From: an archaeon
GTDB lineage: Archaea; Nanobdellota; Nanobdellia; Woesearchaeales; UBA9642
Assembly: GCA_020057295.1 (NCBI GenBank)
Contig: JAGVGF010000005.1
Span: 1 to 64,000 of the forward strand
DNA length: 64,000 nt
Direction: 5' to 3'
Of the stretch, positions 6,223-57,204 are shown piece by piece. Numbering within the stretch: position 1 is the first letter of the stretch; every line of letters begins with the position of its first letter. The notes under the pieces were generated by a model. The model made no database searches, was not told the DNA's origin, and saw only the letters and a program-made list of their open reading frames with translations. The position numbers and the translations under genes were made by a program.

Positions 6223-7584
6223 GTGAGGCTACTAATGATAAACGCTCAGGAAATCGAACAAAAATTTATCGGTATTGCAAAAGAACTTGAATCAATGTAT
6301 GCAGATTTTCAATACTCTGATGCACTTGTAAACTTACTTGGCGAACTCGGACTCTTAAATGACACTCAGAAGTTACAAGGTTTTCTTGACATTTTAACAG
6401 TTAAATTTCAACAATCAGTCTATGGAGAACTAATTGGAAGAAACTCTTCTCTTCTCCAATATGTCGCATTTCTAGCACAAAATCCTGTTGGACGATGTTC
6501 TTCTGTACAATCTTTTAAGATTTCATTACAAAAAAATGCTAAGAATCTTGAATTTACTGATCATGAACTAATTATTGTGTTTGAATTAATGAAGATAAAT
6601 TTTGGAAAAATTACGCAAGATATTCAAAAGGAATATGATGTTGTAAACGATGCATTAACTTATCTTCAAAATCTTAAATCTTCGCTTCCAGGAGTTATGC
6701 GCACAAGTACAGGCGATCAATTATCTCTCTTTTTTAAAGGAAAATATGGAGAATATAGAAAATTAAAAAGATGGGAACGAGAAAAATATGGTGAAGGATT
6801 CAATCCATTACGTTATCTTGGAATACTTCCAGAGCAATTAATGATTCTTAAACAGAATCTTAATGCCATCAAAAGTTCACTTCACAACGGCGTTGTATCA
6901 AACATTAATAGCAATGATCTTGCAATATTTTTATGTTTAAACAGTCCAAGATTATACGGAAACAGTGTTAGAGATGCTAAAGAATATTTAAGATATCAAA
7001 ATACTGCGACTGCAAAAAGGTACGAAACTCCAAAGAAACAAACAAGCATCAAAATAATATATGATAATCTTACAGGCGCATCTGATTTAAAACCATCATT
7101 TTCATTACGTAACGTTGTTATAGCATCACTCATGCTTGCAGGAACGACTGCAGCAAGCGCGCAAACAGAAGTACAAGAATATCAAAAATCAACTAATTCT
7201 ACAACGGTTGTTGCTCAAGATCCTGATTATGCTAAGGGAAGCATAATTTTAGATGAGTTTATAGAACAAACTAAAAAAACAGAACACCGTGGAAGCTTAA
7301 ATAGTATATCTGGAAGAGAATTACAAAAACATTGGATGTCTAATGATTTAAGTAATACATTAGGAAAACACCAAGGATTTATCACGGTAAGTGTTGCAGA
7401 TGATGGCTCATATAGCATTAATATATATTCTACAAGTTCAGAAAACGATTTCGTAATAGAATATAATGCAAGACAATCACAATATGGTCTTAGAGCAGAC
7501 GGACATATTAACGGCAATAAGGGTGCCAAGGAAGCATTGAAAGCCATACATCAAATACTCGGCGCATCACACTTCATAAATTAG
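6223..7584 (+). CDS. Hypothetical protein with helical N-terminal region and internal signal-peptide-like segment
   Basis: 453 aa ORF; residues ~295-314 read LRNVVIASLMLAGTTAASAQ; TATA box at 6181-6188. Confidence 0.7.
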   Translation: MRLLMINAQEIEQKFIGIAKELESMYADFQYSDALVNLLGELGLLNDTQKLQGFLDILTVKFQQSVYGELIGRNSSLLQYVAFLAQNPVGRCSSVQSFKISLQKNAKNLEFTDHELIIVFELMKINFGKITQDIQKEYDVVNDALTYLQNLKSSLPGVMRTSTGDQLSLFFKGKYGEYRKLKRWEREKYGEGFNPLRYLGILPEQLMILKQNLNAIKSSLHNGVVSNINSNDLAIFLCLNSPRLYGNSVRDAKEYLRYQNTATAKRYETPKKQTSIKIIYDNLTGASDLKPSFSLRNVVIASLMLAGTTAASAQTEVQEYQKSTNSTTVVAQDPDYAKGSIILDEFIEQTKKTEHRGSLNSISGRELQKHWMSNDLSNTLGKHQGFITVSVADDGSYSINIYSTSSENDFVIEYNARQSQYGLRADGHINGNKGAKEALKAIHQILGASHFIN

Positions 7585-8134
7585 AAGTTTGCTGTTTTCT
7601 TCGTGCAATAACAATTGCTATTATGCCTGCTATAATAAGAGTTAGTATTCCTATAATTATCCAACGTGTTAAATTGCTTTCTTTTACAATATCCGTTGTT
7701 GTTAACAATGCTTTTTCTTCAGATGTTATCTTACAATCTTTTGAACATGAAAAAGATGATTCTGAAAGATCACACTTATTGTTTCCACAATATTCTGTAA
7801 GTGTCGTTAATGATTTTGATGCAAGAAGTGTTTCTCCATCATAAACTCTCAACTCTACACCTCTACTATTATAAGGTATTCCTAAAGTGTATTCGTCATA
7901 AAAATCAATTGGAAAAGTGGTATTATATGTTTTATTGTTTATGTCTATAATTTGAAATATTAGTCCTTCACTAAACGTATCTTCATAAGGCACGTCATAA
8001 TCTTTTGTAATATTATGGATTATCAGTCCTTCTTGCGTGTATGAAAAGGAAATGAAATATTGTTCTTCAATATTCACAGCAATAACTACTGTTGATAATA
8101 AGATACACAATCCAAGCCACAATAATATCTTCAT
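7574..8134 (-). CDS. Secreted, C-terminally membrane-anchored protein with Cys-rich motif
   Basis: Signal peptide, CGNNKCDLSESSFSCSKDC motif, C-terminal TM followed by RRK. Confidence 0.75.
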   Translation of the reverse strand: MKILLWLGLCILLSTVVIAVNIEEQYFISFSYTQEGLIIHNITKDYDVPYEDTFSEGLIFQIIDINNKTYNTTFPIDFYDEYTLGIPYNSRGVELRVYDGETLLASKSLTTLTEYCGNNKCDLSESSFSCSKDCKITSEEKALLTTTDIVKESNLTRWIIIGILTLIIAGIIAIVIARRKQQTSNL

Positions 8135-9666
8135 TTGCCGTATTTCTCTTCAATTAATGTTTTGAATCGTTCGCGAACAAGATTATCTGTTATTTTTATT
8201 TCTTCTGATGTAAGAATTCTACCCCATTTATTACCTCTTAGAACCCTTCCTTCTAGTTCCTTTATTTGATCCGCCGGAAGATAATTGCTATTTTGACTCA
8301 TATCTTTAGATGTAAGGACGAATCCTAAACTGTTATCTAATTGTATGGTGCCTTCTGCAGATTCTATTTTTTCTCTAGGAACATCATATAATACTATCGA
8401 TACATTTCCTTCTTCCTTATAATTTGGTCGCGCGATTATTTGATTATTTTTTATAAATGCATAATTAATAGTTTTCTTATCGTATAATGCTCTGGTTATT
8501 TTCCAAATATCCATATACAAATCATTACTTGTATCAATTTCTCTCCCCTTTTGTATCGCTTCTTCTTTTCCATAGCTATTTTTTTCTTTTTGAATACAGA
8601 CATCTAATTTTTCTTGAACAGCTTTGTTTCGATCAAAGCTCTTAACTCCTCTAAACCCCTTTTTCAAATAGTCATTTGCAAGAGGGATAATATTTTCACA
8701 TTTAGAATCACTCATAAAAAGCACATATCCTAATTCTTCTTCTAGAAACACATATTTAGTTCCAAATAGGGTATATATATCATTCATATAACCCAGAATT
8801 GGTCCTTCTTTTTCAGAATCTTTAAAATAACATGTTTGAAGAGCTACAACTGCACCATAATTTGTGTTTGCACATTTGGTGTAGAATTTTTGTGCAAACA
8901 TAAGAACGAAATAATCTTCAAAGATTCCTTGATATTTTGTATATTTTTGTGGGTATAACTCCTTAATCGCCAATATACTTGCTGTTATCGCAGTATACCG
9001 CGTTTCTGAAGTAGTTTGTTCCTCAGTTACAGAGTTTACTCCAGGAGCTAACTCTTCCTGCGTAGCATTTATCTCTTTAGCCAGCTTATATTCATCTACT
9101 CCCTCATCAATTAACTCATTATATATAGTATATGTTGTGTCTGCAGCCACCATTCCATCGACATAATGTCTTTCTCTCTGATTTATCTCCGCTTGTATTT
9201 CCTTGAATTCTGCTGCACACTCTTTTTCGCTTGCAAGAGGTGTTATTAAGAACTCTGTTTTTTGTAGATCGTTTACTGATTCTTGAAATCCTGTGCATGG
9301 ATCTGCTGAGAATGTTTTGGAGTATTTTCCTACTAATTTTTTTACTGTTTCTTCTTCGACATTATTTCCATAAAGTATTTTTACACTATTAGTGTCTTTG
9401 GCATATATCAATACAATATCGTTATTTGTTAAATCTGTATTATATGTTTGTGGATCTATCTCTGAAATGTAACTAAATGAAATCTTTATAGTACTCCCAA
9501 AAAGGTTAGGATATTTTAGAACTCCGTTACTACATTGCATATATGCACATTGTTCTCCAAAGCTAGCATTTTTTGCTGGTTGAATGCAATCATCTGCATG
9601 TACAATTCCACAAACTAGTATTATTATAAGTATATATAGCATTCCAAAAGTTATGCTTTTTTTCAT
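8131..9666 (-). CDS. Secreted hypothetical protein
   Basis: MKKSITFGMLYILIIILVCGIVHA signal peptide from the ATG at 9666, which overlaps the pilin stop. Confidence 0.7.
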   Translation of the reverse strand: MKKSITFGMLYILIIILVCGIVHADDCIQPAKNASFGEQCAYMQCSNGVLKYPNLFGSTIKISFSYISEIDPQTYNTDLTNNDIVLIYAKDTNSVKILYGNNVEEETVKKLVGKYSKTFSADPCTGFQESVNDLQKTEFLITPLASEKECAAEFKEIQAEINQRERHYVDGMVAADTTYTIYNELIDEGVDEYKLAKEINATQEELAPGVNSVTEEQTTSETRYTAITASILAIKELYPQKYTKYQGIFEDYFVLMFAQKFYTKCANTNYGAVVALQTCYFKDSEKEGPILGYMNDIYTLFGTKYVFLEEELGYVLFMSDSKCENIIPLANDYLKKGFRGVKSFDRNKAVQEKLDVCIQKEKNSYGKEEAIQKGREIDTSNDLYMDIWKITRALYDKKTINYAFIKNNQIIARPNYKEEGNVSIVLYDVPREKIESAEGTIQLDNSLGFVLTSKDMSQNSNYLPADQIKELEGRVLRGNKWGRILTSEEIKITDNLVRERFKTLIEEKYGK

Positions 9667-33972: not shown

Positions 33973-34021
33973 TTTGTGACCTCAATAAATATTATTTGTT
34001 AATAGCATTCTAAACATTGAA

Positions 34022-34390: not shown

Positions 34391-34405
34391 TTTTTACCTG
34401 CTATT

Positions 34406-35203: not shown

Positions 35204-35246
35204 TTTATTAATCCTCAATTATTTTGATAATCTCTATAAACATAAT

Positions 35247-35777: not shown

Positions 35778-35787
35778 TGTTAATCAC

Positions 35788-36312: not shown

Positions 36313-36364
36313 ATTAATCACTCGTTATATTGATAGTTATTTTATTTAATGTTATATTTTATTT

Positions 36365-36985: not shown

Positions 36986-37005
36986 TTTACACCTTGAATA
37001 TAATC

Positions 37006-37554: not shown

Positions 37555-37590
37555 TGTATCACTTTGTTAATTAATAATCATAATTTAATT

Positions 37591-37980
37591 TTAGTAACAG
37601 TAACAAACTAATCTTCCGCCTAAGTTCTTTTCCTTAGCCTGAATGTGTGTCATTAATCCTTGCGATGTTGATATAATCATTATACCGAAATCTTTTGCTG
37701 GTAAGTATCTCTTCTCGAATTTTTCGTAATCATCCTTTTTAACATTGAATCTTGGCTTGATTACTCCGACCTTGTTGATTGCACCGATTAATTGTATTGA
37801 TAATAATTTTCCTTTGCCATCTTCAATCTCTTTATATTCTCCTAGATACATTTGTTCATTAAGTATTGTTAATACTTGTCTGATGAATTTTGAATTGTTA
37901 CCTACTACAATCTCTTTTCTTCCTAACTTTTCATGATTGTTTACGTAAGACAATACGTTTGCTAATGGGTCATTTAACAT
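37591..37980 (-). CDS. rps8: 30S ribosomal protein uS8
   Basis: DPLAN, IKPRF, STSQGLMTH, GGRL. Confidence 0.96.
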   Translation of the reverse strand: MLNDPLANVLSYVNNHEKLGRKEIVVGNNSKFIRQVLTILNEQMYLGEYKEIEDGKGKLLSIQLIGAINKVGVIKPRFNVKKDDYEKFEKRYLPAKDFGIMIISTSQGLMTHIQAKEKNLGGRLVCYCY

Positions 37981-37993
37981 TTTATACACCTAA

Positions 37994-38224
37994 TTAATTA
38001 TATTTTTTGAATCCTATTTTTGTAGCTATATCTCTAAAGCAGTGTCTGCATAAATTTATGCCGTACTTGCTGATATGTGCTCCTGTTCTGCCGCATCTCT
38101 TACACTTCTTGTTCAATGCACCACCAGTTCTAATCTTTGGTACACTGTACTTTGTATGTTTTGCAAGCTTTCCAGGTTTTGATTGTAATTGTTTTAATAC
38201 TTTAGTATGATCTGTAGTAGTCAT
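37994..38224 (-). CDS. rps14: 30S ribosomal protein uS14 (zinc type)
   Basis: CKRCG...LCRHCFR..GFKKY. Confidence 0.95.
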
Positions 38225-38225
38225 T

Positions 38226-38759
38226 TTATTCCTCGTCCTCGACAGCGAATATTGCTCCGAATTTTTCTTTCATATAATTCATTGCGTCTTGCTGTGATAT
38301 CCTGTGATTTATTGGGATAACTCTTTTCAATACTTTTCTTATCTTGATTCTGTAACCTGCTCTTTCTAGAGTTATTGAGCATTGTAGACCCATTGATCCT
38401 ATATCTGGATCGTATCTTGCATCTTTAATGTCAATATATTCTTTTATTCCGAATGAAACATTTCCATTAGCATCAAAATTGTTTGGTGCTAATTTGTTGT
38501 CTTTAGAGTATAATAATTTAGGTATTAATGCTAATGCCTTATCTTTTCTTAATGTAACCTTAACACCAATTGGTAATCCTGGTCTTAATCCCCATGCTGC
38601 GATTCTTTTCTGAGTTATAGTTCTTATTGGCGATACGCCGGTTATAGTTCCTAATAACTTTTGAGCTTTCTCTAAAGCAACTTGGTCTTTTCCAGTACCA
38701 ATATTTAGAGTTAACTTCTGTACTCGAATTTCTCGCATCGGATTTGTTTCTTTTGTCAT
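38226..38759 (-). CDS. rpl5: 50S ribosomal protein uL5
   Basis: [26 protein letters not shown]. Confidence 0.96.
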
Positions 38760-38786
38760 TTTAATCATTGAATATAATTATATTTT

Positions 38787-39476
38787 TTATAAGTTCATTT
38801 TTAATAAAGGATTTTCCTTACCGATTACTAGTGCATATTCTTTACTAGTCTCGAATTTTTCGTCCTTTGCTTTAACAATCATCGAGTCTTTCTTGATTTC
38901 TTCTATCTTTCCGACTTTTCCTATGTGTTTACCTTGATACAATACTACTATTGCACCTTTTTCGAATGCTAAATGTTCTTTAACAATCTGATCAGGAAGA
39001 GTTAATAATAATGAATCCTTGACTTTGTAGTGATGTTTATCGAATAAAACGTTTCTTCCATCAAGTAAATTTAGTTGTACTTTTCCTTTAACAAATGTCT
39101 TACCAACTATTTTTACAAGTTTTAACAATGATTCCTCTTTAGTTATTGTTGCTAATTTTAATATTCCATCAGTATCAATTATTAATCTGTAATATGTTCC
39201 TAATTTTGGGAATGATACTACATCAGTGAAACATACTGGATATTTGTACGAGTCAACTTTTTTGCCGTTAACAAGTATCTCTTCACTTAATACTAAATGT
39301 TTAACTTCTTTGATTGTGCTTGCTAATTTTAATTCATATTTTAATATGTTCGATAATGGTAGTGTTAAATTCTTTGACATACCACCAGGATTGCTTCTCG
39401 TAATGAAAGTTATTCCTCTACGTTGAATCTTCCAAGTTTTTGGTGCGTTTAATCGAAATAAATGTCTTTTAACCAT
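38787..39476 (-). CDS. rps4e: 30S ribosomal protein eS4
   Basis: HLFRLNAPKTW, QLNLLDGRN, GKHIG. Confidence 0.94.
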   Translation of the reverse strand: MVKRHLFRLNAPKTWKIQRRGITFITRSNPGGMSKNLTLPLSNILKYELKLASTIKEVKHLVLSEEILVNGKKVDSYKYPVCFTDVVSFPKLGTYYRLIIDTDGILKLATITKEESLLKLVKIVGKTFVKGKVQLNLLDGRNVLFDKHHYKVKDSLLLTLPDQIVKEHLAFEKGAIVVLYQGKHIGKVGKIEEIKKDSMIVKAKDEKFETSKEYALVIGKENPLLKMNL

Positions 39477-39487
39477 TTTAATACTCC

Positions 39488-39982
39488 TTATTTAGTGACC
39501 TTTTTAGCAGGTTTCTTTTCAACAGTGTCTTTTGATTCTGTCTTAACCTTTGCTACTTTTGGTGCAACAGGTTTTGATTCTGATTTTACTTTAACAACTT
39601 TTTCAGTAGTTGTTTTCTTTTCAGGCATTCTCTTCTTATCATCAAGATTTAATTCAACAAGTAAAAGATTTGATGGATCAATAGGATATCTTGCTTTTGA
39701 ACCGTCTCTTTTAACATGCTCTATCTTTGAAATGTAAACTTTTAAGTGCTTCATATTTACTTCTTCAATTTTTCCTTCTTGTCTCTTGAATTGTCCACGC
39801 ATTATCCTGACCTTATCTCCTGTTCTTACTCTTAATGCTCTTATACCATATTTTGTTCGTAATTCTTTTGATAAATGTACATTCATGAAATTTCCTCTTA
39901 AATGTAGAGGAGCATTGAATCTAAATTTCCTTTGCTTGTTTGGTTTCTTGCTTGATACCCAATTTGGTGAAAATGTTTTCAT
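39488..39982 (-). CDS. rpl24: 50S ribosomal protein uL24
   Basis: PNKQRK, LSKELR, GDKVRIMRG, IDPSN. Confidence 0.95.
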   Translation of the reverse strand: MKTFSPNWVSSKKPNKQRKFRFNAPLHLRGNFMNVHLSKELRTKYGIRALRVRTGDKVRIMRGQFKRQEGKIEEVNMKHLKVYISKIEHVKRDGSKARYPIDPSNLLLVELNLDDKKRMPEKKTTTEKVVKVKSESKPVAPKVAKVKTESKDTVEKKPAKKVTK

Positions 39983-40021
39983 GTTATACCTTGTGTTTTA
40001 CTTTTATTTTTTGAATGTTAT

Positions 40022-40423
40022 TTATACAATCATACTCGCAATCTTTGCAACTGCTGGCCATCTGTCAGCAACTTCTTTTGCAATTGGTCCTTTGAATATT
40101 GTTCCTTTAGGATTTCCTTTTTCATCTTTTAATACAACAACTGCGTTGTCTTCGAATTTGATTCTCATGCCATTGCTTCTTCTGTATTCTTTCTTTTGTC
40201 TTACAACAATAGCGTATACGACTTGTTTTCTCATCTCAGGTTTACCACGCTTTACAGCAGCCATTACTAAATCTCCCACGCCTGCTCCTGGCTTTTGACC
40301 CTTGACAGTTTTATGACCAAATACAGCAAATATTCTTACAATCTTTGCACCACTATTATCACAACTATTTACTTCTGAACCTACTGGTAAAGATTTTACA
40401 ATGTTTGCTTTTAATCCTTTCAT
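40022..40423 (-). CDS. rpl14: 50S ribosomal protein uL14
   Basis: CDNSGAK, FEDNAVV, GPIAKE. Confidence 0.97.
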   Translation of the reverse strand: MKGLKANIVKSLPVGSEVNSCDNSGAKIVRIFAVFGHKTVKGQKPGAGVGDLVMAAVKRGKPEMRKQVVYAIVVRQKKEYRRSNGMRIKFEDNAVVVLKDEKGNPKGTIFKGPIAKEVADRWPAVAKIASMIV

Positions 40424-40439
40424 TTTTAATCACTCAATT

Positions 40440-40793
40440 TTAATTAGTATATTTTTTTACTATTTCAATAACTACGAAATTTTTAGTCTTTGATAAAGGT
40501 CTTGTTTCTGCAATTCTTACAGTGTCTCCTTCTTTTGCATCAATACTTTCTGGATTGTGAGCTTTGACTCGTGTTCTTCTCATTTCGAATCTTTCGTATT
40601 TCTTAACGAATTTTCTACGAGGCCACTCTACTGTAACAGTTTTCTGCATTTTTGCACTCTTAACTACGCCAGTGAATATTCTACCACGTACTTTGACCAT
40701 TCCATGGAATGGATCCTTAGGATCTACACTCTTAGGTGTCTTTTCAGGCTTCTTTGTTTCGATGCCTATATTTTTTATTTCAGTTTTTGCCAT
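40440..40793 (-). CDS. rps17: 30S ribosomal protein uS17
   Basis: PFHG..VRGR, KYER, ETRPLSKTK. Confidence 0.96.
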   Translation of the reverse strand: MAKTEIKNIGIETKKPEKTPKSVDPKDPFHGMVKVRGRIFTGVVKSAKMQKTVTVEWPRRKFVKKYERFEMRRTRVKAHNPESIDAKEGDTVRIAETRPLSKTKNFVVIEIVKKYTN

Positions 40794-40802
40794 TTTTGAC
40801 CT

Positions 40803-41066
40803 TTAATCTTTTAATTTTGATTTTATTCTATCTTCAGGTTTCTTCGCAATCTTGTTTCCATCGACTAAGAGGTTTCCGATTTTGAATACGTTGCCTTTTT
40901 TGAATATTATTTTGAATTCTTTGAAATTTTTCTTGTTCACTAAAATTTTTAGCGAATCACGAGTTTCATCAACAATTTTTCCAGTTAAACCTTCAAGTTG
41001 CCGACTATTGGAACGTACTATTTCAACTTGTTCGCCGATGAATTCATCTCGTATAGTCTTTATCAT
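40803..41066 (-). CDS. rnp1: Ribonuclease P protein component 1 (Rpp29/POP4)
   Basis: EFIG, GKIVDETR, PEDR; conserved position in the archaeal operon. Confidence 0.9.
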   Translation of the reverse strand: MIKTIRDEFIGEQVEIVRSNSRQLEGLTGKIVDETRDSLKILVNKKNFKEFKIIFKKGNVFKIGNLLVDGNKIAKKPEDRIKSKLKD

Positions 41067-41092
41067 ATTGTTTTTTTGCCAAACAGTTTTTT

Positions 41093-41407
41093 TTACTTAT
41101 TTTTTAATTCAATAGTTTCAGGTGCAAAGCCAATTTCTATAAGTGCTTCTTGAACTTTCGTTATATGATTTCCCTGCAGTTCAACATATCCGTCTTTTGC
41201 AGTTCCGCCACATGCGAATTTATTCTTTAACTTCTTTGCTACATCTTTGATATCGATTTCGTTAGTATCGATACCCTCGATCATTGTGTACTGTTTTCCG
41301 AATTTCTTCTTCACTAACTTGACAACAATCTTTTGGCTCTCCCTAGCTATTTGCTCACAAACACATAACTCTTTTGGCAAACCACAAACGTTGCATATAT
41401 TAGTCAT
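41093..41407 (-). CDS. sui1: Translation initiation factor aIF1 (SUI1 family)
   Basis: CGLPKELCVC, LKNKFACGGT, ELQG. Confidence 0.95.
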   Translation of the reverse strand: MTNICNVCGLPKELCVCEQIARESQKIVVKLVKKKFGKQYTMIEGIDTNEIDIKDVAKKLKNKFACGGTAKDGYVELQGNHITKVQEALIEIGFAPETIELKNK

Positions 41408-41458
41408 TTTTGTTTTTTATTTTTTTGAATATTATTTTTATTATTTATCTACAAGAGT

Positions 41459-41692
41459 TTACAAGCTCTTATAATTCTTTGTACGTAATTCCTTGACCTT
41501 CTTTTCAAAATTTTGTTGCTTTAATGTTTCTACTTTTGCTACTGTTCTCTTAATATCACGTATCTGTTTAGTATTCTTTGGTGTTGTTCCTACAGCGATT
41601 TGAGCGTTTAGTTTCATTAATTCTGTTCTTAATTCAACTATCTTTTTCTCAAGTTCTTCTTTAGGCATCTTTTTTATATCGTTGAATTTCAT
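41459..41692 (-). CDS. rpl29: 50S ribosomal protein uL29
   Basis: ELRTELM, IRDIKRTVA; operon position. Confidence 0.9.
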   Translation of the reverse strand: MKFNDIKKMPKEELEKKIVELRTELMKLNAQIAVGTTPKNTKQIRDIKRTVAKVETLKQQNFEKKVKELRTKNYKSL

Positions 41693-41701
41693 TAGTATCA
41701 C

Positions 41702-42502
41702 TTATTCTTTTTTCTCTTCATCTTTTGATTCTGACTTTTTAACAGGTTTCTTCTTAGCTGCAGGCTTTTTCTCAGCAGCATCTTTTGATTCTGACTTTTT
41801 AACAGGTTTCTTCTTAGCTGCAGGCTTTTTCTCAGCAGCATCTTTTGATACTGTGTCTGCAGTTAATGTTTCTACTTTTCCTGTAGTCATGTCCTGTAAT
41901 TTTGCTTGATCAATAAATATGATGTCGTCAGGCATTTTTGTTGTTGATGGCATTATTCTTACTTGTACACCAACTAGTCCTGTCTTTAATTTTGCTGAAT
42001 TGTATGCTGTATCTACACCTGATACTGCTATGTCTCCTGATTTTTTTAAGTATCCTAAGTAGAATCTCCATTTCTTAGCTCTACTGCTTGGAATCTTTCC
42101 TGAAATTAATATTTCTACACCACGTGCACCATTAGACATTACATCTGTAATTGCCTTATGTCCTATTCCTTTGAATCTTGCAGTGCCGAATCTTTCTAAT
42201 GAATTTGCAATACCTTCTGCAACAATACTTGCATCAGCCATCGGATTTTCTTCCTCTAATAATTCTATTTGAGGATTTTCTAATTTGAATCTCTCTTTTA
42301 ATTCTCTTGTTAATTTAGTAATGTTTGAACCTGATTTTCCTACTATTAATCCTGGTCTGCTTGAACAGATTATTATCTTCTCGCCAAGTGGCGTTCTTTG
42401 AACTCTTATATAACTTAATCCTGCTTTTCCTAATACACTTCGTAAGTATTCTTCTATTTGATATTCTTTAAGATTTTCTGCGACGAATTTTCTTTCTATC
42501 AT
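41702..42502 (-). CDS. rps3: 30S ribosomal protein uS3
   Basis: RTPLG, RPGLIVGK, GARGVEILISGK, GVQVRIM. Confidence 0.97.
   Translation of the reverse strand: MIERKFVAENLKEYQIEEYLRSVLGKAGLSYIRVQRTPLGEKIIICSSRPGLIVGKSGSNITKLTRELKERFKLENPQIELLEEENPMADASIVAEGIANSLERFGTARFKGIGHKAITDVMSNGARGVEILISGKIPSSRAKKWRFYLGYLKKSGDIAVSGVDTAYNSAKLKTGLVGVQVRIMPSTTKMPDDIIFIDQAKLQDMTTGKVETLTADTVSKDAAEKKPAAKKKPVKKSESKDAAEKKPAAKKKPVKKSESKDEEKKE
41719..41849. repeat. Perfect 60-bp tandem repeat (~2.2 copies) in the uS3 C-terminal tail
   Basis: 41721-41780 is identical to 41781-41840; encodes SKDAAEKKPAAKKKPVKKSE twice. Confidence 0.95.
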
Positions 42503-42503
42503 T

Positions 42504-43028
42504 TTAATTGTCCTTCTTTACTGTCTTCTTAACAGTCTTTGTTTCTTTAGTAGTATCTTTTGTCCTAGCTGCGTTTTTTGATGCTGCTAGTCCTTTTACT
42601 TCTTTTAATACTACTTCTATATGTGAATTTTTGAATATGCTTCTCTTCTTTCTACCATAATGCCAATTCTTTGGTCCTATTTGCATTGCGATATGTACAA
42701 CTTTTAAATCTGAACTGTTGAATCCTTTATTTTTTGCATTTGCTTCTGCTGATTTTATTACAGCTAATATTGCCTTACATGCTTTTGGATAATATCTTCC
42801 AGCACTCATTCCAGATTTATGACCTACACCATTACTAAATCTTACTATTGGTACTGGTCTTATAAAATCTATGGATTGTTGTAATAACATTTTAGCTTGA
42901 TTTACTGGTCTTCCACGAACATAATTACATATTTCTGTTGACTCTTTTGGTGAAATATCTAAATTTCTACCAACTGCCTTTACAGTGTTTTCTTCGCTTT
43001 TTTGGTACGAGTAATTGTGTTCTGCCAT
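42504..43028 (-). CDS. rpl22: 50S ribosomal protein uL22
   Basis: ISPKES, GRYYPKA, SAEANA, SHIEVVL. Confidence 0.95.
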   Translation of the reverse strand: MAEHNYSYQKSEENTVKAVGRNLDISPKESTEICNYVRGRPVNQAKMLLQQSIDFIRPVPIVRFSNGVGHKSGMSAGRYYPKACKAILAVIKSAEANAKNKGFNSSDLKVVHIAMQIGPKNWHYGRKKRSIFKNSHIEVVLKEVKGLAASKNAARTKDTTKETKTVKKTVKKDN

Positions 43029-43047
43029 TTTAATCATTAATTATTAT

Positions 43048-43428
43048 TTATTTGACCGATAAGTTGCTGGATGATTTTGTTGCTCCAACTCCTGGTGCAT
43101 TGTGTTGAACCTTTCTTCGTGTTTGTGACAACTCACCGAAGAAGCATCCTATCATATCTTCTTGAATTATTACTGGGAAAAATTCTTTACCATTATGAAC
43201 TTTTATTGTTTTACCGACGAATTGTGGTAATACAATCATGTCTCTAACATGTGTTTCTATTGAATCTAATTTTGATAGTTTCTTCATTACTTTTTTCTTA
43301 CCTTCGTCAAATCCTCTACTTATGGATCTTCGTTGTCTTGCTGGTAATAATTCTGCAAATTCTGTCAAAGTCATATTTTGTAATTCTTCTAAGCTTTTTC
43401 CTCTGTAAGTAAATAATTTTTTAGCCAT
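43048..43428 (-). CDS. rps19: 30S ribosomal protein uS19
   Basis: FTYRG, THVRDM, HNGK, PGVGAT. Confidence 0.96.
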   Translation of the reverse strand: MAKKLFTYRGKSLEELQNMTLTEFAELLPARQRRSISRGFDEGKKKVMKKLSKLDSIETHVRDMIVLPQFVGKTIKVHNGKEFFPVIIQEDMIGCFFGELSQTRRKVQHNAPGVGATKSSSNLSVK

Positions 43429-43440
43429 TTTGTTTCAACC

Positions 43441-44178
43441 TTATCTTCTTGGAGCTTCTCTAATTATAGCTTTTGTTTTTGATTGACCTGTTCTCTTTGG
43501 TCTTATGTAACCGACATTTCTACCTGGTGGAGCGTTCTGTGGAGCTGGTCTTGCCTTACTCTTTCTTGAACTTCTCTTGTTACCAAATGGATGGTCGACT
43601 GCGTTTTGTGCTGATCCTGACATTTGTGGGAATCTCTTCTTTCTTGCATTTCTGTAATGAGCCATTGTACCTGCTTTTAAGAATGGTTTATCCTTTCTTC
43701 CAGCACCTGCTACAATTCCTAATGTTGCTCTGCAATTTAAATGGAATTCTTTGATTCTCTTTGATGGTAATAATACTGATATTGCCTTATCTGTCTTTGA
43801 AACTACTTTTCCAAATGTTCCTGTTGTTCTACAGTATTTACCGCCGTCTCCTGGCATTCCTTCAATATTAAATACTGTTGTACCTTCTGGAACATCTTTT
43901 AATTGTAATGTATTTCCTAATTCTAATTCTGCATCCGGACCGACTTTTAATATTTGTCCTGTTCTTATTCCTTCTGGTGCAATCATTAAACCTGATGTGC
44001 CGTCATTATATTTTACTGATAATAATGGTGCTAGATGTCCTTGAGATTTAACTACATCTAATACTTCAGCACTAGTTACGCCATATTTTACTTTTGCTTC
44101 TCCTAAGTATCTGAAACTTGGAGCTGTAAAACTAGGTCCGCCTTTTCCACGTGCCTGTTGTGTTAAATTCTTACCCAT
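43441..44178 (-). CDS. rpl2: 50S ribosomal protein uL2
   Basis: MGK..QQARGKG, PGDGGK, NAVDHPFG, APPGR.VG. Confidence 0.96.
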   Translation of the reverse strand: MGKNLTQQARGKGGPSFTAPSFRYLGEAKVKYGVTSAEVLDVVKSQGHLAPLLSVKYNDGTSGLMIAPEGIRTGQILKVGPDAELELGNTLQLKDVPEGTTVFNIEGMPGDGGKYCRTTGTFGKVVSKTDKAISVLLPSKRIKEFHLNCRATLGIVAGAGRKDKPFLKAGTMAHYRNARKKRFPQMSGSAQNAVDHPFGNKRSSRKSKARPAPQNAPPGRNVGYIRPKRTGQSKTKAIIREAPRR

Positions 44179-44188
44179 TTGATTTACC

Positions 44189-44440
44189 TTATATTAATCC
44201 TAATTTTGTTGCGATGTCAATTGCTGGTGTTTCGTTACTGAACTTGACGTATGCTCTTTTCTTTGCATCTGGTCCGATTCTTGTTGTAACGCCAACGACT
44301 TTAACTTTGAAAAATGATTCAATCTCGCTCTTTATTGCTTGCTTTGTTGCTTTCTTATCTACTTCGAATATCAACTTATTTTCTGATTCCATTAACTTAA
44401 TGGACTTTTCTGTTGATAATGGATTTTTTACAACTTGCAT
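44189..44440 (-). CDS. rpl23: 50S ribosomal protein uL23
   Basis: PLSTEK, NKLIFEV, KRAYV. Confidence 0.94.
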   Translation of the reverse strand: MQVVKNPLSTEKSIKLMESENKLIFEVDKKATKQAIKSEIESFFKVKVVGVTTRIGPDAKKRAYVKFSNETPAIDIATKLGLI

Positions 44441-44475
44441 TTTTTCCTCAATGATTTTGATTTTTTCGTTTTTTA

Positions 44476-44534
44476 GATGAACTCACGTTTTCGTGACGTT
44501 CATCACTTTTTACGAGATTTTTTGTAAAAATCTC
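44476..44534 (-). other. Two hairpins in the uL4-uL23 intergenic spacer
   Basis: Minus strand GATGAAC-G-TCACG-AAAA-CGTGA-GTTCATC (44476-44504) and a 9-bp stem (44514-44534). Confidence 0.55.
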
Positions 44535-45337
44535 TAATACTTGAATGATTTTGCTATTTCGTCTATTGCGCCTTCAGTGTATAATGTTAAACGTCCAATT
44601 GAACATCCTGGTGCTAATAATTCTGCACTTAGATGTGTTGGTGTTACAATGTCTACTCCTGAAATGTTTGCTGCTGCACTGTTTAATGCACATTTTTTTG
44701 ATACAACAAATAATACTGATTTTTTAACTTTGTATGGTCTGCCCCTATTCTTTCCAAGGCCTGCTCTATGAATTTTTTCTTTTGTTCTGTCTAATTCTGC
44801 TTTGAATCCTAAGTCGTGTAATAATGTTATTACATCTTTAGTTTTATCTATTGATTCAACATCATTTGATAGTATGAATGGGAATTCTTTTGGAAGTATA
44901 TGTCCTCTTGTTACTACTAAATCTTTAACCATTGTTGCAGCTAATGCTGAACATAATGCTTTCTTTCTCTCCTTAGTGTTTAATTTCTTAGACCAGATTC
45001 TGTCTGCTTTTGGAGGATGTGCTCTTCTTCCACCGACCGTATTTGGTGCTAATGCTCCAACCCAGTTGAATCTTGTTCCTCTCTTAGTCATTATTTTTCT
45101 AGGAGATCTTGCAATACCAATACCGTATGATCCTTTGTAGTCTCTTCTTCGTCTTGATAATTTTGCTGAAACCATCATTCCTGCATCTGGATTTGATCCG
45201 TATGGTTGTCTTGAATTTGCTTGTACAGTTAATACTGCTTTGTATATTAAATCAGGTCGAACTGTTTCACTAAATTGTGCTGGTAACTCTTTCTTTCCTG
45301 TTTCTTTTCCTTTTTTATCGAATATTGGTAATTTCAT
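44534..45337 (-). CDS. rpl4: 50S ribosomal protein uL4
   Basis: RPDLI, RQPYG, GGRRAHPPK, LLAPG..GRLT. Confidence 0.96.
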   Translation of the reverse strand: MKLPIFDKKGKETGKKELPAQFSETVRPDLIYKAVLTVQANSRQPYGSNPDAGMMVSAKLSRRRRDYKGSYGIGIARSPRKIMTKRGTRFNWVGALAPNTVGGRRAHPPKADRIWSKKLNTKERKKALCSALAATMVKDLVVTRGHILPKEFPFILSNDVESIDKTKDVITLLHDLGFKAELDRTKEKIHRAGLGKNRGRPYKVKKSVLFVVSKKCALNSAAANISGVDIVTPTHLSAELLAPGCSIGRLTLYTEGAIDEIAKSFKY

Positions 45338-45344
45338 TTTGATT

Positions 45345-46322
45345 TTATTTTGCGTTTGTATTTATTTCTGATATTGTTGGCACTGTTTCTTGTGCTCTAT
45401 GTCTTAATGGTTTTGTGAATAGTATTGCTCTCTTTTGGGGACCAGCAACACTTCCTTTGATTATAATATATGTACTTTTTATTAATCCGTAATGTGGCCA
45501 TCCGCCTTTAGGATTTACATCTTCAGGTTTTGATCCTATCTTGAATATTTGTTTATTGTATTCTGTTCTTTGATGATAGCCCATTTGTCCTGGGTGAGCA
45601 ACTCTGTATAATACATGTCCTTGTCCGCTCCATGCGCCAAGTGTTCCTACTCTTCTAACTCCTTTCTCTGTCTTATGGTTCTTGAAGTGTACACCAAATC
45701 TTTTTACTGGACCTTGTAATCCTTTACCTTTAGTTACTGCATGTAAGTCTACAAATTCTCCTTCTTTGAAGAATGTTGAAACTGGTAATTCTTTATCGTG
45801 ATTTTCTCTAACAAATTTGATTTTATCTTCGACTTTTCCACTTAAACCGAGTTCGAATATTTCTGGTTTTTTCTTAGAAAGTCCTGCTAATCTTGGTTGT
45901 GTATAAACAAGTAATTTTACATCTGTATAATCTGCTGCATTTAATGCATCTATTTCAGAATTTCCTGTATGTGTTTTTGTAGGGACTATCTTTCTTGCTA
46001 AGTCCTTGTCTGTTTTGAATAATAATTCTTTAGAAACGCTCTTGCCCTTGTATGCTTGCTTGTATAATCTTACACCAGCAATTTTTATTGGTGGACATTC
46101 AACAACTGTTACTGGTGTTGCAATTTCTTCGCCTTTTGTAGTTGAAGTTTTTCTTGTATCGATGCCCATTAGTGTTGTCATGCCTACCTTGTAGCCCATG
46201 AATCCTAATAGAACATCTTTTGTTGGCTGAATCCATGATCTAACACGTGCATATTGTCTCTTAGCCTTTACTCTAGGCCAATACTGCATGCTTCCATGTC
46301 TTGGTGAATGAATTTTTGCCAT
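45345..46322 (-). CDS. rpl3: 50S ribosomal protein uL3
   Basis: PRHGSMQYWPR, GYKVGMT, TKGKG.QGPVKRFG, GQMGYHQRTEYNK. Confidence 0.97.
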   Translation of the reverse strand: MAKIHSPRHGSMQYWPRVKAKRQYARVRSWIQPTKDVLLGFMGYKVGMTTLMGIDTRKTSTTKGEEIATPVTVVECPPIKIAGVRLYKQAYKGKSVSKELLFKTDKDLARKIVPTKTHTGNSEIDALNAADYTDVKLLVYTQPRLAGLSKKKPEIFELGLSGKVEDKIKFVRENHDKELPVSTFFKEGEFVDLHAVTKGKGLQGPVKRFGVHFKNHKTEKGVRRVGTLGAWSGQGHVLYRVAHPGQMGYHQRTEYNKQIFKIGSKPEDVNPKGGWPHYGLIKSTYIIIKGSVAGPQKRAILFTKPLRHRAQETVPTISEINTNAK

Positions 46323-53462: not shown

Positions 53463-54509
53463 TTATTTCTTTCCAGAAACATACTTGAACAACTGATTAT
53501 CTTTGTCAAGAACCAATGTTGCACCCTTTGCATTATCTCTCATGACTTCTAGGCTTTTGGTGAAAGAGTAGAATTCTGGGTCGAGACTATATGTTTGCGC
53601 ATATATTCTGGTTGCTGTAGCATCTGCCTTACCCTTAATTTCTTCAGCTTTCTTGTAAGCTTCAGAAGTTATGCTCTGAAGTTCACGATTCTTCTCTCCC
53701 ATTATTTTTTGGTATTCACCATCTCCTTCTGAAAGATATTTCTGTGTTATCCTATTCCTTTCAGCAATCATTCTAGATTCTACACTTGCTTTTACTTGGT
53801 CAACATACACTATCCTTTTTATAAGGAAGTCTGTTACTGTAATTCCGTATGTTGCACATTGGTTGTTTACTTGAGCAGTTATGCTAGATACTAATTTTTC
53901 TCTACCATCATAGATTTGGTCTACTGCTACAGTACTCTCAAGTTCCTTGTCTGTTACAAGCATTTTTCTATTACTGCTTCGAATACTTTCTATCGCATCA
54001 CGCTTACTGATTTGCTCTCTGACAATTCCATCAACAACATCATCAAGTTTTCCGTGTCCTCTTGACTCATCACCACTTAGTGTTGCTAAGTAGATGAACG
54101 GATTATGGATATGCCATCTTGCAGTTCCATCTACAAAAAGATATTTTTTATCTTTTGTCGGAACTTGTTCTGGTGCACCATCCCATTCAAGCATTCTATG
54201 GTCGAAGTAGTGTACTGACTGCCATGGCATCTTTACTTTTAACCCTGCACCACTTTCATCAACGACAGGCATAGATACATTTTCTTTCAATACATAGTCT
54301 TGTATCTGTCTTTTTACTTGTGCATTGATTGAGTCTCTGTCTGCAGTGTTTGTCGCTATCGGATTTAATACTACTTCTACAGGTTTACCGAATGATGTTA
54401 TTACAGCTTGTTCCGTCTGATCAAGTCTATACAAAGTACTATTTGCAATTACTAGTGCAGATAATCCTATCGCTGTATTTCTGATTAGTTTCTTTATCAT
54501 GTTACTCAT
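53463..54509 (-). CDS. hflC: Protease modulator HflC (SPFH family)
   Basis: EQAVITSFGKP, PTKDKK, RMIAER, DPEFYSFTKSLE; follows hflK. Confidence 0.88.
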   Translation of the reverse strand: MSNMIKKLIRNTAIGLSALVIANSTLYRLDQTEQAVITSFGKPVEVVLNPIATNTADRDSINAQVKRQIQDYVLKENVSMPVVDESGAGLKVKMPWQSVHYFDHRMLEWDGAPEQVPTKDKKYLFVDGTARWHIHNPFIYLATLSGDESRGHGKLDDVVDGIVREQISKRDAIESIRSSNRKMLVTDKELESTVAVDQIYDGREKLVSSITAQVNNQCATYGITVTDFLIKRIVYVDQVKASVESRMIAERNRITQKYLSEGDGEYQKIMGEKNRELQSITSEAYKKAEEIKGKADATATRIYAQTYSLDPEFYSFTKSLEVMRDNAKGATLVLDKDNQLFKYVSGKK

Positions 54510-55672
54510 TTTGCACCTCCATCAAGGTCTAACTTTTTCAAAAGTAGACTCGAATTACCGTTGCCTTGTTCCAGATAGAATATCTGTTTGGAATTTTTCA
54601 AAATGTCCGGCATCGCTTCTAAGTACATTCTGTTTCTTGTTACTGCTGGTGCGTTCTTGTATTCTGCATAGATTTGTCTAAATCTTGCAACATCACCTTG
54701 TGCATTGTTGACTCTTTGTGAAGCATATCCTTCTGCATTTTGTATTGTTGCTAATGCATCTCCTCGAGCTTTTGGTATTTCCTTGTTGTATTGCTCCATA
54801 GCATTGTTGATTTTTTGTTGTTTCTCTTGCATTGCACTGTTTACTGCATTAAATGATGGTCTTACTCCTTCTGGAGGATTGCTAGACTGCAATTGTACAA
54901 GAACTACTTCTAATCCTGTATTGTACATTCGAAGTTTATCTTGTAGTTTTTTCTTGACATCTATTTCTATGTCTGCTCTTCCTGTTGTAAGAATTTCATC
55001 AATGCTTGCATCTCCAACAACTACTCTTGTTACTGCTTCAGATACATCTCTCAATGTCTTTTTTGCATTTCTTATGTTGAAACTATACGCTACAGGATCG
55101 CTTATCTTGTATTGTACAATCCATTCAACATCTGCCATGTTTAAATCTCCAGACAACATCAAATATTCTCCACGCAATATTGACCTGGCTTTCTCTGCTA
55201 AGTCTCCATCTGTAGAAAGTCCTTCTCCTTCGATAATTTCTTGAAGTTGGTCTTTTGATGCTGTTCCAGAATTTATTTCTGACACTCCAAGATATTCTGA
55301 TTTCACGCCAGGCTTTACTGATCTGAATCCGAATGATTCAGTAAATATTGCCTGATTCTGCACTTCATTTACGCTTTCAACCATTGGTATTAGAAAGTGT
55401 AATCCTGGTTTTGTTGTTCCTGAATATCTGCCGAATGTTTTTTCTATTCCTACACTATCGTTTGGTATTGTATAACAGCTTGCCATTGTTGTCATCAATA
55501 ATCCTGCTGTTGCTACACCAACTTTTACTTTCCTACTATATTTTTCCCAAAAATCTCTTAACATATACTCAGCACTATCTGAGTCTAGGTTGTTACGCCA
55601 ATCATCAGGCTTGGGATCGCTTGATGGTGGAGTCTCATCCATGTTCGTTGTTTTTCTTACCATTGTATTCAC
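54506..55672 (-). CDS. hflK: Protease modulator HflK (SPFH family)
   Basis: PGLHF, MLSGDLN..VEWIVQYKI, IPKARG.A, A.GDVARF, TRNRMYLE. Confidence 0.9.
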   Translation of the reverse strand: MNTMVRKTTNMDETPPSSDPKPDDWRNNLDSDSAEYMLRDFWEKYSRKVKVGVATAGLLMTTMASCYTIPNDSVGIEKTFGRYSGTTKPGLHFLIPMVESVNEVQNQAIFTESFGFRSVKPGVKSEYLGVSEINSGTASKDQLQEIIEGEGLSTDGDLAEKARSILRGEYLMLSGDLNMADVEWIVQYKISDPVAYSFNIRNAKKTLRDVSEAVTRVVVGDASIDEILTTGRADIEIDVKKKLQDKLRMYNTGLEVVLVQLQSSNPPEGVRPSFNAVNSAMQEKQQKINNAMEQYNKEIPKARGDALATIQNAEGYASQRVNNAQGDVARFRQIYAEYKNAPAVTRNRMYLEAMPDILKNSKQIFYLEQGNGNSSLLLKKLDLDGGAK

Positions 55673-56130: not shown

Positions 56131-56160
56131 TTCAATCCCTCCCATATTTTCCGATTAGTT

Positions 56161-57204
56161 TTATAACTCCTTATTTAGTGTTAGATATCCGTCGACATTT
56201 TTTGTTCGTCCGTTGTAATTCACTTCTACCGATCCTTTTATTCCGCTAACGTTGAATTTATTGTAGTAGCTGGCGTAAACTCCTGTCTTTTTTGATGAAG
56301 ATTCAGATTCTGTTCCTATTCCTAGATATCCTAAAGTTGTTTTTATTCCTGGAAGTATTTTTGTTGTTGTGTTATTGTTGTTTTTTGTTACATCAAATCC
56401 TAGAGTGTAATCTCCTCTTGTTTGAGGGGGATTTAGATGAATGCTAAAGAACTGAGGCACAGTAAACAATTTAGTGATATTTGTTTGTGATTCTGCACTG
56501 TAAAATTTTTCATCTACATTTTCTGCAGCAGTTCTTGTTTTTATTTGCCAACTTCCATTATTGTTGTGTTTATACCATGTGAATTGTCCAAAATCTTTCG
56601 TATTTATTCCTGTAAATAATTGTTTAGCTGTTGGGAGATAGCTGACACTTGCGAACAACTTGTTTGTATGCATTGCAGTCCATCCATAGTAGCTGTTTTT
56701 TGTTTCGTTGTTCAATGGATCTTTTGTAACAAGTGCTCCTTCAAGACTTGCTTTTATTCCGTATGTTAACGGAATATTTTCTACTGTTCCTATTGCAAAT
56801 TGTCTTGGAATGCTTGTTTTTCTAAGGCTTGATCCTGCTTCTAAGCTGTAAGTAATGTTGTTATGATTTACGGTGCTCATTAAATCTAGGAACAATTCAT
56901 CTTTTCCATCAAAGTTTCCAGCATTTACAAGAATCCCTGTTATTGCAAGATTTTCTTTTTTTATGATATCAGTTAATGATAACATACTTACATCTGTCGT
57001 GTTAGATTCATGTTTTAACGTAACTTTTCCTACGTCTAGGCTTGTCATATGCATAGGCACTCCAGAAGGTGTTATACTTGTCTGTGTTGCTACTGATGTT
57101 TGTATTCTATTTTCTGCAACACCAGAAGTTTGTGCAGTTAATCCTGTATTTAACGCATATAGCATAGCTATTGATGTTATTATATTTCTAGCAATATTTT
57201 TCAT
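56161..57204 (-). CDS. Secreted beta-strand-rich hypothetical protein
   Basis: Signal peptide ending LTA|Q; many alternating amphipathic strands. Confidence 0.7.
   Translation of the reverse strand: MKNIARNIITSIAMLYALNTGLTAQTSGVAENRIQTSVATQTSITPSGVPMHMTSLDVGKVTLKHESNTTDVSMLSLTDIIKKENLAITGILVNAGNFDGKDELFLDLMSTVNHNNITYSLEAGSSLRKTSIPRQFAIGTVENIPLTYGIKASLEGALVTKDPLNNETKNSYYGWTAMHTNKLFASVSYLPTAKQLFTGINTKDFGQFTWYKHNNNGSWQIKTRTAAENVDEKFYSAESQTNITKLFTVPQFFSIHLNPPQTRGDYTLGFDVTKNNNNTTTKILPGIKTTLGYLGIGTESESSSKKTGVYASYYNKFNVSGIKGSVEVNYNGRTKNVDGYLTLNKEL

Follow-up and report, generated by a model that had tools for sequence, protein, structure and literature searches.

Why should an archaeon export proteins that look as if they were made for the outer envelope of a bacterium? 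The question is raised by a 64,000-nucleotide stretch of DNA (the window, analysed here at its whole length; positions 1–64,000 of contig JAGVGF010000005.1 in assembly GCA_020057295.1, or G000:C5:1-64000) from an archaeon of the order Woesearchaeales. A sequence-only reading of the window had described a dispersed set of exported proteins, several with signal peptides ending just before a Gln, whose cargo included a type IX secretion system (T9SS)-type C-terminal domain (CTD), a beta-barrel-like protein and a DUF3108-like protein, and had proposed that they were captured from, or mimic, the envelope of a single host bacterium of the Fibrobacterota–Chlorobiota–Bacteroidota (FCB) group. Type A CTDs and Gln at position +1 (the Q-rule) are hallmarks of Bacteroidota/FCB secretion. 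We know of no type IX secretion and no beta-barrel outer-membrane proteins in archaea and, to our knowledge, cultured DPANN archaea all live on archaeal hosts. The genes examined here are real and conserved, and they reside in the archaeon; their design is that of diderm bacteria and their ancestry is mixed. We give roughly an even chance to the reading that they form a dispersed, mosaic surface module, resident in the lineage, that acts on a diderm bacterial partner.

The protein encoded at 13771–14499 (Table 1) has the layout of a T9SS cargo protein: a Sec signal peptide called by a heuristic predictor, MKIIRNTIIAGLLLASSYIVNA↓QSK (arrows mark the predicted cleavage site), a passenger domain (residues ~23–150) and a sorting domain (~159–239). 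Over residues 159–229 of 242 the latter scored 36.5 bits against Por_Secre_tail (PF18962; cut-off 27) and 32.5 bits against TIGR04183 (cut-off 23); lying above both curated cut-offs and at the extreme C-terminus, the T9SS-type CTD is genuine. The passenger was detected in 0 of the 40 relatives searched, and a sequence search of the protein against PDB gave no match. The window CTD (residues ~118–242) is 35–50% identical to CTDs at 18 bacterial loci, a set picked through query-derived peptide patterns and therefore biased to look-alikes; 11 of these belong to Ignavibacteriales or Melioribacter, two to Cloacimonadota, and one each to Balneola, Chitinophagales, Neomarinimicrobiota, a Synechococcus-labelled metagenome-assembled genome (MAG) and a further bacterium. 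The signature QNYPNPFNP...SYTQTKKMLL-K is common to the window CTD and those of Ignavibacteriales, and by this likeness the window CTD is of Ignavibacteria-like sequence.

Such domains are not confined to the window. Five CTD genes are spread over four contigs of the genome, and PF18962 was found in 37 of the 151 genomes of the order at E ≤ 1e-3 (the unpublished genome G132, counted among the 151, contributes one weak match, and no other result depends on it) and above the cut-off in 21/151. A single-contig 1.3-Mb genome of the order, G016, holds four copies. The window CTD gene lies directly downstream of a giant gene in the same orientation (14508–18401; 8-bp gap), whose product matches no Pfam or NCBIfam family, and CTD genes adjoin giant archaeal-style surface proteins on contigs C3, C4 and C5.

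The second protein with a clear signal, encoded at 56161–57204, begins MKNIARNIITSIAMLYALNTGLTA↓QTS. AlphaFold2 gave an unusable model from 5 sequences (pLDDT 37.8) and, from 50 sequences, a model with pLDDT 91.9 and pTM 0.84 that comprises 18–20 strands, arranged in hairpins, and one short helix. All of the matches listed by Foldseek were bacterial outer-membrane barrels (TM-scores 0.09–0.43), and the best 50 rows of an all-against-all comparison with VIA-align were all membrane beta-barrels. In the latter, VDAC1 was matched with Z 13.5 (root-mean-square deviation 4.0 Å over 236 aligned residues), OccD/OpdQ porins with Z 12.3–12.6, Tom40 with 12.4 and the barrels of TonB-dependent receptors with ~12.3–13.0. 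The alternation of hydrophobic and polar faces along the modelled strands was 2.29, compared with 1.50 ± 0.24 in shuffles, 0.05% of which reach 2.29. The protein is confidently predicted to be a closed porin-like transmembrane barrel, and the earlier beta-barrel-like call is borne out at the level of structure prediction. A complex prediction for the barrel with the window CTD scored 0.00 against a mark of 0.32, which we give no weight either way.

The barrel belongs to a family without a name, with no Pfam family in any of 50 members (0/50). A word-indexed search returned three homologues at 62–63% identity; Gln at +1 persists in each of these orthologues (...GLTA↓Q, ...GLDA↓Q, ...GLNA↓Q). 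Contig C1 carries a paralogue, 31% identical, with an ANA↓Q signal and a beta-signal-like end (...TSYKF); in 22 of 59 full-length family members the last residue is aromatic (F, Y or W). Searching 1.84 billion proteins with a five-sequence profile brought up 78 cluster representatives, of which 61 had E ≤ 1e-10. With a narrow profile the family was found in 4/41 relatives, and with a broad one in 8 of 301 genomes of the archaeon's phylum, all of them in its order and distributed over four genera. It was found in none of the five FCB genomes that had supplied CTD matches and in none of 301 genomes from the phylum of an Ignavibacteriales MAG (0/306 FCB-phylum genomes in all), nor was it found on viral contigs. 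In the phylum of a Patescibacteria carrier the count was 1/301, the seed genome alone. Of 30 members looked up, four had an organism name: one Candidatus Woesearchaeota, two Patescibacteria group and one 'bacterium'. Three carrier genomes of the candidate phyla radiation (CPR) are present in the collection, with sizes of 0.8–1.2 Mb, and Omp85 (PF01103) was found in 0/3. The carriers of the family are chiefly members of this archaeal order, plus a few CPR bacteria. The barrel fold and the distribution of the barrel family are new here.

The surroundings of the barrel gene are also conserved. The small lipoprotein gene directly downstream resembles the gene downstream of the barrel orthologue in the related genome G151 (29% identity, pairwise E 6e-9), and by this measure the barrel–lipoprotein pair is conserved there; hflKC is absent downstream of the G151 barrel gene. 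The G151 orthologue (63%) adjoins a 76%-identical orthologue of the divergently oriented Lrp-type regulator. Five genomes from other genera have an AbrB/PhoU-like regulator of ~300 aa divergent from the barrel gene, and this regulator also flanks the C1 paralogue (G000:C1:150611-156376). In the window, a regulator similar to the AbrB/PhoU-like one is encoded at 50951-51796. For the barrel gene, the comparison of G000 with G151 gives pN 0.24 and pS 0.80, values that give no proper dN/dS, synonymous sites being saturated. When seven of the eight barrel-bearing archaeal genomes were examined for CTDs (G611 was left out), all seven had them at E ≤ 1e-3 and five above the cut-off, compared with 21/151 in the order; this co-occurrence is suggestive only and is overstated, as three of the seven genomes are congeneric. 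The module recurs in a minority of genomes of the order.

Gln at +1 was the feature that had tied these proteins together in the sequence-only reading, which looked to a genome-wide excess and to a glutaminyl cyclase for confirmation. Signal peptides were called with a home-made heuristic predictor rather than SignalP, and 263 of 1220 open reading frames (ORFs) were signal-like. Gln stood at +1 in 19 of these (7.2%), compared with 3.4% Gln over the next 29 residues, and in 7 of the 43 best-scoring. Published Q-values are ~71% on average in Bacteroidetes, 77% in Ignavibacterium album and <9% in most Chlorobi, with a proteome benchmark for the Q-rule above about 48% (PMC5837995); measured against these, 7.2% means that there is no proteome-wide Q-rule. 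The genome yielded no glutaminyl cyclase of either type, with working controls: PF05096 gave 0 matches (control positive in 4 genomes), as did PF04389 (M28; control 14/14). The tie between Gln at +1 and the exported CTD and barrel proteins did hold, in 4 of 7 proteins (five CTD, two barrel) versus 15 of 256 others (Fisher p = 6e-4), and in 6/7 once VLA↓Q and SNA↓Q sites a few residues further on, picked out by eye, are added, a post hoc count. Among archaeal proteins that are 5'-complete and carry a C-terminal CTD, seven of nine read x↓Q and one more is ambiguous; this count left out L012, L014 and L061 (match off the C-terminal end of the extracted ORF), L009 (3'-truncated) and L006, L007, L010, L059 and L064 (5'-truncated). 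In other genomes of the order, xA↓Q is read in all three such proteins with a normal signal (...DTQA↓Q, ...PAQA↓Q, ...PHNA↓Q), while one further protein is ambiguous. In the barrel family, [AGS]Q occupies the cleavage position in 41/44 signal-bearing full-length members, CPR included. Judged from these sequences, Gln at +1 is an inherited trait of the CTD and barrel families and not a proteome-wide rule; it can move with single protein families rather than mark a whole proteome.

Two observations may be added on signals. An archaeal subgroup of the barrel family (L047, L051, L052, L053 and L054, from G159, G157, G060, G522 and G611) has no classical signal and a weakly hydrophobic start; it reads '(S/T)G-QPDT(T/A)xLE' (...ALSG-QPDT...), with Gln kept at the aligned cleavage position. 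Two further proteins have VHA↓Q signals, at G000:C2:192249-193169 (L037:3250-4170) and G000:C6:47468-49561 (L036:2469-4562), one a weak pentameric ligand-gated ion-channel-like protein and the other a transglutaminase-core protein.

Of the four Q-signals first listed, VNA↓Q of the CTD protein and LTA↓Q of the barrel are textbook signals, whereas the other two carry little weight. In the protein encoded at 6223–7584, the codon before the 'signal' is TTA, no start codon, and ASA↓Q, at residues 295–314 of the 453-aa ORF, is best read as part of an internal membrane anchor; the protein matches no Pfam or NCBIfam family, and a search of 40 relatives, including 12 of the same genus, did not find it. 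The protein encoded at 32493–33455 has a plausible signal (MLRNKNKKLSLTALVLTAILSTTTPEILVS↓QEII) and only two relatives, a 95%-identical copy, in which Gln at +1 is kept, and a 38–39% homologue in G151, in which it is absent (...ICGITA↓MSEG). Its DUF3108-like label is unproven: the PF11306 match has 15 bits (cut-off 26, E 0.023), the lead coming from a language model (PF11306 on 13/30 nearest Atlas clusters, score 0.92), and a sequence search against PDB gave no match. At the corresponding G151 locus (L046, G151:C50, set against window 30211-33455) the homologue adjoins an ABC ATPase of 91% identity, with no SLT gene in between. Exported genes diverge much faster than their neighbours between G000 and G151, and at this fixed locus surface genes seem either to evolve very fast or to be replaced, with members gained and lost.

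The lytic transglycosylase noted near this cargo is borne out by its PF01464 score (Table 1). It carries ...LIQESSFNP..., in which we take QESSFNP to be a catalytic-type Glu-Ser motif, and it has no close relative in the genome collection. Its N-terminus, MDRKTFLK, is twin-arginine-like with RK for RR and may be the relic of a bacterial twin-arginine translocation (Tat) signal; TatC was not found in the genome. The hflK and hflC genes overlap by 4 bp. HflK scored above its cut-off in 4/41 relatives, and the named sequences closest to it come from a Pacearchaeota MAG and a MAG labelled 'Methanosarcinales' (46%), followed by Alphaproteobacteria (33–37%).

The (I/L/A)RNxxI n-region said to be common to several of these proteins was found in part. 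In its strict form it fits the 13771–14499 protein, HflC and the internal segment of the 6223–7584 protein, but fails on the barrel, whose orthologues read GR, and on the 32493–33455 protein. 'IRNT' occurs seven times in the proteome, three of these in signal-like n-regions (the 13771–14499 protein, HflC and a CTD-adjacent protein on C4) compared with ~0.06 expected, the motif being set post hoc. 'RN' occurs 19 times in the n-regions of all signal-like proteins versus 9.5 in shuffles, and the pattern is therefore partly a genome-wide habit, at ~2-fold enrichment. The DNA coding for the signals of the 13771–14499 protein and of the C4 protein is ~80% identical over ~40 nt, so that these two signals are probably homologous; the likeness of HflC is weaker, and its N-terminus is a membrane anchor. 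When the barrel profile was compared by hhalign with a beta-rich protein on C4 and with an xA↓Q neighbour on C1, only signal peptides aligned.

Table 1. Features of the window, and regulator loci beside barrel genes (strand in parentheses; coordinates in nucleotides of the window)
Feature	Length	Position	Strand	Remarks
Orphan protein	453 aa	6223..7584	(+)	'signal' at residues 295-313, nt 7105-7161, ...AASA↓Q, internal hydrophobic segment
T9SS type A CTD protein	242 aa	13771..14499	(-)	Sec-type signal VNA↓Q; PF18962 and TIGR04183
Giant lipobox surface protein	1297 aa	14508..18401	(-)	N-terminus ...LFLVGC↓T
SLT-domain lytic transglycosylase	337 aa	31325..32338	(-)	PF01464, 63.2 bits (cut-off 21.3)
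Orphan exported protein, weakly DUF3108-like	320 aa	32493..33455	(+)	divergent neighbour of SLT gene
Archaeal ribosomal-protein operon		33514..46322	(-)	Pfam matches to L32e, L19e, S4e; between cargo genes
hflC, bacterial-type		53463..54509	(-)	TIGR01932, 199.1 bits (cut-off 134.4)
hflK, bacterial-type		54506..55672	(-)	TIGR01933, 261.8 bits (cut-off 159.4)
Small lipobox lipoprotein	105 aa	55828..56145	(-)	...LGLTSC↓D; directly downstream of barrel gene
Predicted porin-like transmembrane beta-barrel protein	347 aa	56161..57204	(-)	signal LTA↓Q; AlphaFold2 model
Lrp/AsnC-type regulator		57382..58392	(+)	Pfam HTH_24/AsnC; divergent from barrel gene; synteny anchor
AbrB/PhoU-like regulator loci beside barrel genes		L047, L050, L052, L053, L054

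The machinery that would serve such proteins in a bacterium was also searched for. SprA gave 0 matches in G000 and in G151 (3/3 FCB genomes positive), PorV gave 0 matches in the genome, and PorU was matched only over its own C-terminal CTD portion, below the cut-off; as far as SprA, PorV and PorU go (GldK/L/M/N were not searched), the archaeon encodes no T9SS, in line with the earlier premise. Omp85/BamA (PF01103) gave 0 matches in G000, with the control positive in 7 diderm genomes. With BamA, the T9SS core and glutaminyl cyclase not found, the proteins cannot work in the archaeal envelope as they do in bacteria. The parts of the putative module would be the type A CTD proteins, small and large (the window copy with an orphan passenger), the porin-like barrel with its co-transcribed small lipoprotein, the SLT lytic transglycosylase, bacterial-type HflKC and fast-evolving orphan exported proteins. 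To judge from their sequences, they would be exported by the archaeal Sec system and cut by signal peptidase after a small residue, leaving Gln at the new N-terminus. They would then act outside the archaeal cell, in contact with a diderm bacterial partner, where the SLT protein could cut the partner's peptidoglycan and the barrel and CTD-tagged proteins could engage its outer membrane.

Several points weigh against this reading. The partner-envelope role, the contact and the delivery are all things that we infer. CTDs are found where the barrel family is not, for example in G016, so the parts need not act together, and the congeneric genomes noted above inflate the barrel–CTD co-occurrence. 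A tree built from 14 archaeal CTDs and 18 bacterial ones has 24 open branches among its 29 inner ones; it speaks neither for nor against a single origin and fixes neither the number nor the direction of transfers, and the bacterial CTDs entered it through a biased selection. The barrel is a prediction only; its hydrophobic, putatively lipid-facing side is moderate (mean Kyte-Doolittle 1.26), the window copy ends in ...LTLNKEL, with no terminal aromatic beta-signal, and its saturated synonymous sites blunt the pN/pS comparison. The heuristic signal predictor and the few organism names available for barrel-family members (4/30) count on the same side. A stronger version, in which a subset of Woesearchaeales and a few CPR bacteria make effectors for a partner's envelope, with barrels and CTD proteins entering a diderm (FCB-type) periplasm through the transglycosylase breach and being inserted by the partner's own BAM and T9SS, strikes us as unlikely. 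If it were true, a nutrient channel would be opened and the symbiont anchored, and it would be a first case of bacterial outer-membrane biogenesis being hijacked across domains.

Other accounts of the same genes begin with the assembly. The genome is a metagenome-type assembly of six contigs (1,201,343 bases), and Ignavibacteria-like CTD DNA attracts many foreign contigs in a groundwater metagenome run: in the bin 13947-14167 (220 bp, the start of the CTD) summed depth was 142.8, compared with ~4–10 elsewhere, and loose ends were many. This spike is the conserved CTD motif drawing in the CTD genes of many other organisms in that sample, whose motif DNA is nearly identical. That the bacterial-looking genes are assembly or binning chimeras is nevertheless barely credible, and already contradicted by the evidence. 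Completeness is 100% and contamination 0.46%; within the window GC runs from 0.26 to 0.36 and does not step at the cargo genes, and it is 0.306–0.316 among the six contigs. Cargo genes flank an archaeal ribosomal-protein operon on a single contig, a closed single-contig relative has CTDs, and synteny is kept in G151 and five other archaeal genomes. A 667-bp contig of a related strain in the groundwater run spans 14177-14844 with 89 differences and bridges the point where the CTD gene meets the giant gene upstream; the run contains short contigs of that strain, so that uncovered parts of the window carry no meaning. Conserved synteny and this bridging contig from an independent assembly make chimerism very unlikely, and the contig-integrity check called for at the outset thus came out in favour of the contig. 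The premise of a DPANN-like archaeon likewise holds, given L32e, L19e and S4e and Rad51/RadA, also encoded in the window (Pfam). The best 80 RadA loci in the genome collection are all archaeal MAGs; among them, relatives at 63–75% identity are titled Candidatus Woesearchaeota, Nanoarchaeota or Nanoarchaeia, and the closest (84–92%) are third-party assemblies labelled 'uncultured Methanosarcinales archaeon', a label that we judge unreliable. The window is firmly archaeal, a stretch of the chromosome of a Woesearchaeota-type DPANN archaeon with a small genome and probably a symbiotic lifestyle.

If the genes are archaeal, their origin and use can still be read in other ways. The proposal that all the exported proteins come from, or imitate, the envelope of one FCB-group (Ignavibacteria/Bacteroidota) host, with Q-rule signals and T9SS tags kept, seems quite unlikely to us. 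The CTD speaks for it, with its best matches in Ignavibacteriales and their allies and Gln at +1 tied to CTD proteins, as do the high Q-values of I. album and Bacteroidetes (PMC5837995). The barrel family, however, occurs in 0/306 genomes of the FCB phylum against 8/301 archaeal relatives and CPR MAGs, its Gln at +1 is a family trait that extends to CPR members, and the nearest relatives of HflK are archaeal and the next alphaproteobacterial. The passenger domain and the 6223–7584 and 32493–33455 proteins are orphans, with no detected bacterial homologues, and cannot be assigned to any donor. Support for a single FCB donor extends to the CTD only. We regard as doubtful, though deserving serious attention, the possibility that transferred genes are leftovers now serving the archaeon's own surface in a non-bacterial way and without a partner. 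The CTD would then be a plain immunoglobulin (Ig)-like domain for structure or adhesion, and the barrel a pore, either soluble or associated with an S-layer. The CTD does fold into a compact Ig-like sandwich (PMC11285876), CTD genes sit beside giant archaeal-style surface proteins, the distribution is patchy, and the machinery for bacterial-style use was not found. Yet a closed barrel of ~20 strands with an alternating hydrophobic outer face, as modelled, would be hard to keep soluble, and x↓Q signals, the CTD motif set and the terminal aromatic (in the paralogue and 22/59 members) are kept over deep divergence, which would be unexpected if they were meaningless; in addition, the apparently intact SLT motif points to peptidoglycan, which such archaea are not known to make (PMC8204110). 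A Woesearchaeales clade with its own outer membrane, into which barrels insert by a BamA-independent route, would account for a porin-like barrel with a signal peptide, the beta-signal-like ...SYKF of the paralogue, the barrel–lipoprotein gene pair, 21 lipobox-like lipoproteins and HflKC, and CPR genomes with the barrel family likewise have no Omp85. We consider it very unlikely, given that Omp85/BamA was not found although its control was positive in 7 diderm genomes, that an envelope-defining protein should spread wider in the clade than 8/301 relatives, and that, among the papers listed by a literature search, no title or abstract opening describes an outer membrane for Woesearchaeota.

Among the other genes of the window are a full-length RelA/SpoT homologue of bacterial type (659 aa; 22070-24049, (-)) with HD_4, RelA_SpoT, TGS and ACT domains, and genes for two tandem paralogous small proteins at 20004-20450 and 20497-20925 (-), whose N-termini are alike (...YIDYLREEIDILRNSGEDFD... 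and ...YYDYLKESIQELQDKGEDVD...). Lipobox-like lipoprotein signals (L-x-G/A-C) number ~21 genome-wide; those in the window belong to 14508-18401 (the 1297-aa giant), 55828-56145, 47900-48262 and 48877-49695, and one such lipoprotein is thioredoxin-like.

The reading of a lineage-resident module acting on a diderm partner extends a published line of thought. Bacterial hosts for Woesearchaeota and Pacearchaeota have been argued from lytic transglycosylases (PMC8204110), so that both the SLT proteins of these groups and their suggested bacterial hosts are already in the literature (PMC8204110; PMC10936187). A possible distant relative of PopA has been described in Altiarchaeales (PMC12228718). The literature searches turned up no account of T9SS sorting domains in Woesearchaeota, nor of porin-like barrels there, and the supplements of PMC8204110 and PMC12228718 may bear on this. 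What the present data add is that a barrel family, also present in CPR bacteria, and T9SS sorting domains reside in archaea, with Omp85 not found in G000 or the CPR carriers and SprA, PorV and PorU not found in G000. Which organisms Woesearchaeota live with, and by what means ultra-small symbionts draw on their partners, are old questions, and these genes give them a concrete molecular entry point; the proteins of the module are open to direct tests.

Compared with known systems, the CTD and barrel proteins resemble those under the Q-rule of Bacteroidetes in having Gln straight after the predicted cleavage site (PMC5837995; PMC10653852), but here it marks a subset of exported proteins (~7% compared with ~71%) and no glutaminyl cyclase was found in the genome. 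The murein-like lytic transglycosylases of family fam00969 in Woesearchaeota and Pacearchaeota (PMC8204110) likewise place an SLT domain in an exported protein of a small-genome archaeon; they are described there as large, up to 3,000 aa, whereas the window protein has 337 aa and its gene is missing at the matching site in the closest relative. The window CTD protein differs from bacterial T9SS cargo in being archaeal, in its orphan passenger, in a genome where SprA, PorV and PorU were not found, and in a lineage with no known outer membrane. It nonetheless follows the plan of type A cargo of Bacteroidota and Ignavibacteria, a Sec signal with Gln at +1, a passenger and a C-terminal domain of ~75 residues, and has the motif set QNYPNPFNP...KKMxLxK in common with the cargo of Ignavibacteriales. 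The barrel is only 6–9% identical to OccD/OprD porins, VDAC1 and Tom40, with no Pfam match in 50/50 members; unlike bacterial porins, it is carried by Woesearchaeales and CPR bacteria in which Omp85/BamA was not found, and the window copy has no terminal aromatic residue. In its predicted form, however, it is of like size to bacterial and organellar porins of 18–19 strands such as OccD/OprD (3t24, 3sy9), VDAC1 (3emn) and Tom40 (Z 12.3–13.5 over 233–236 residues), and like bacterial porins it has a signal peptide and strands with alternating faces.

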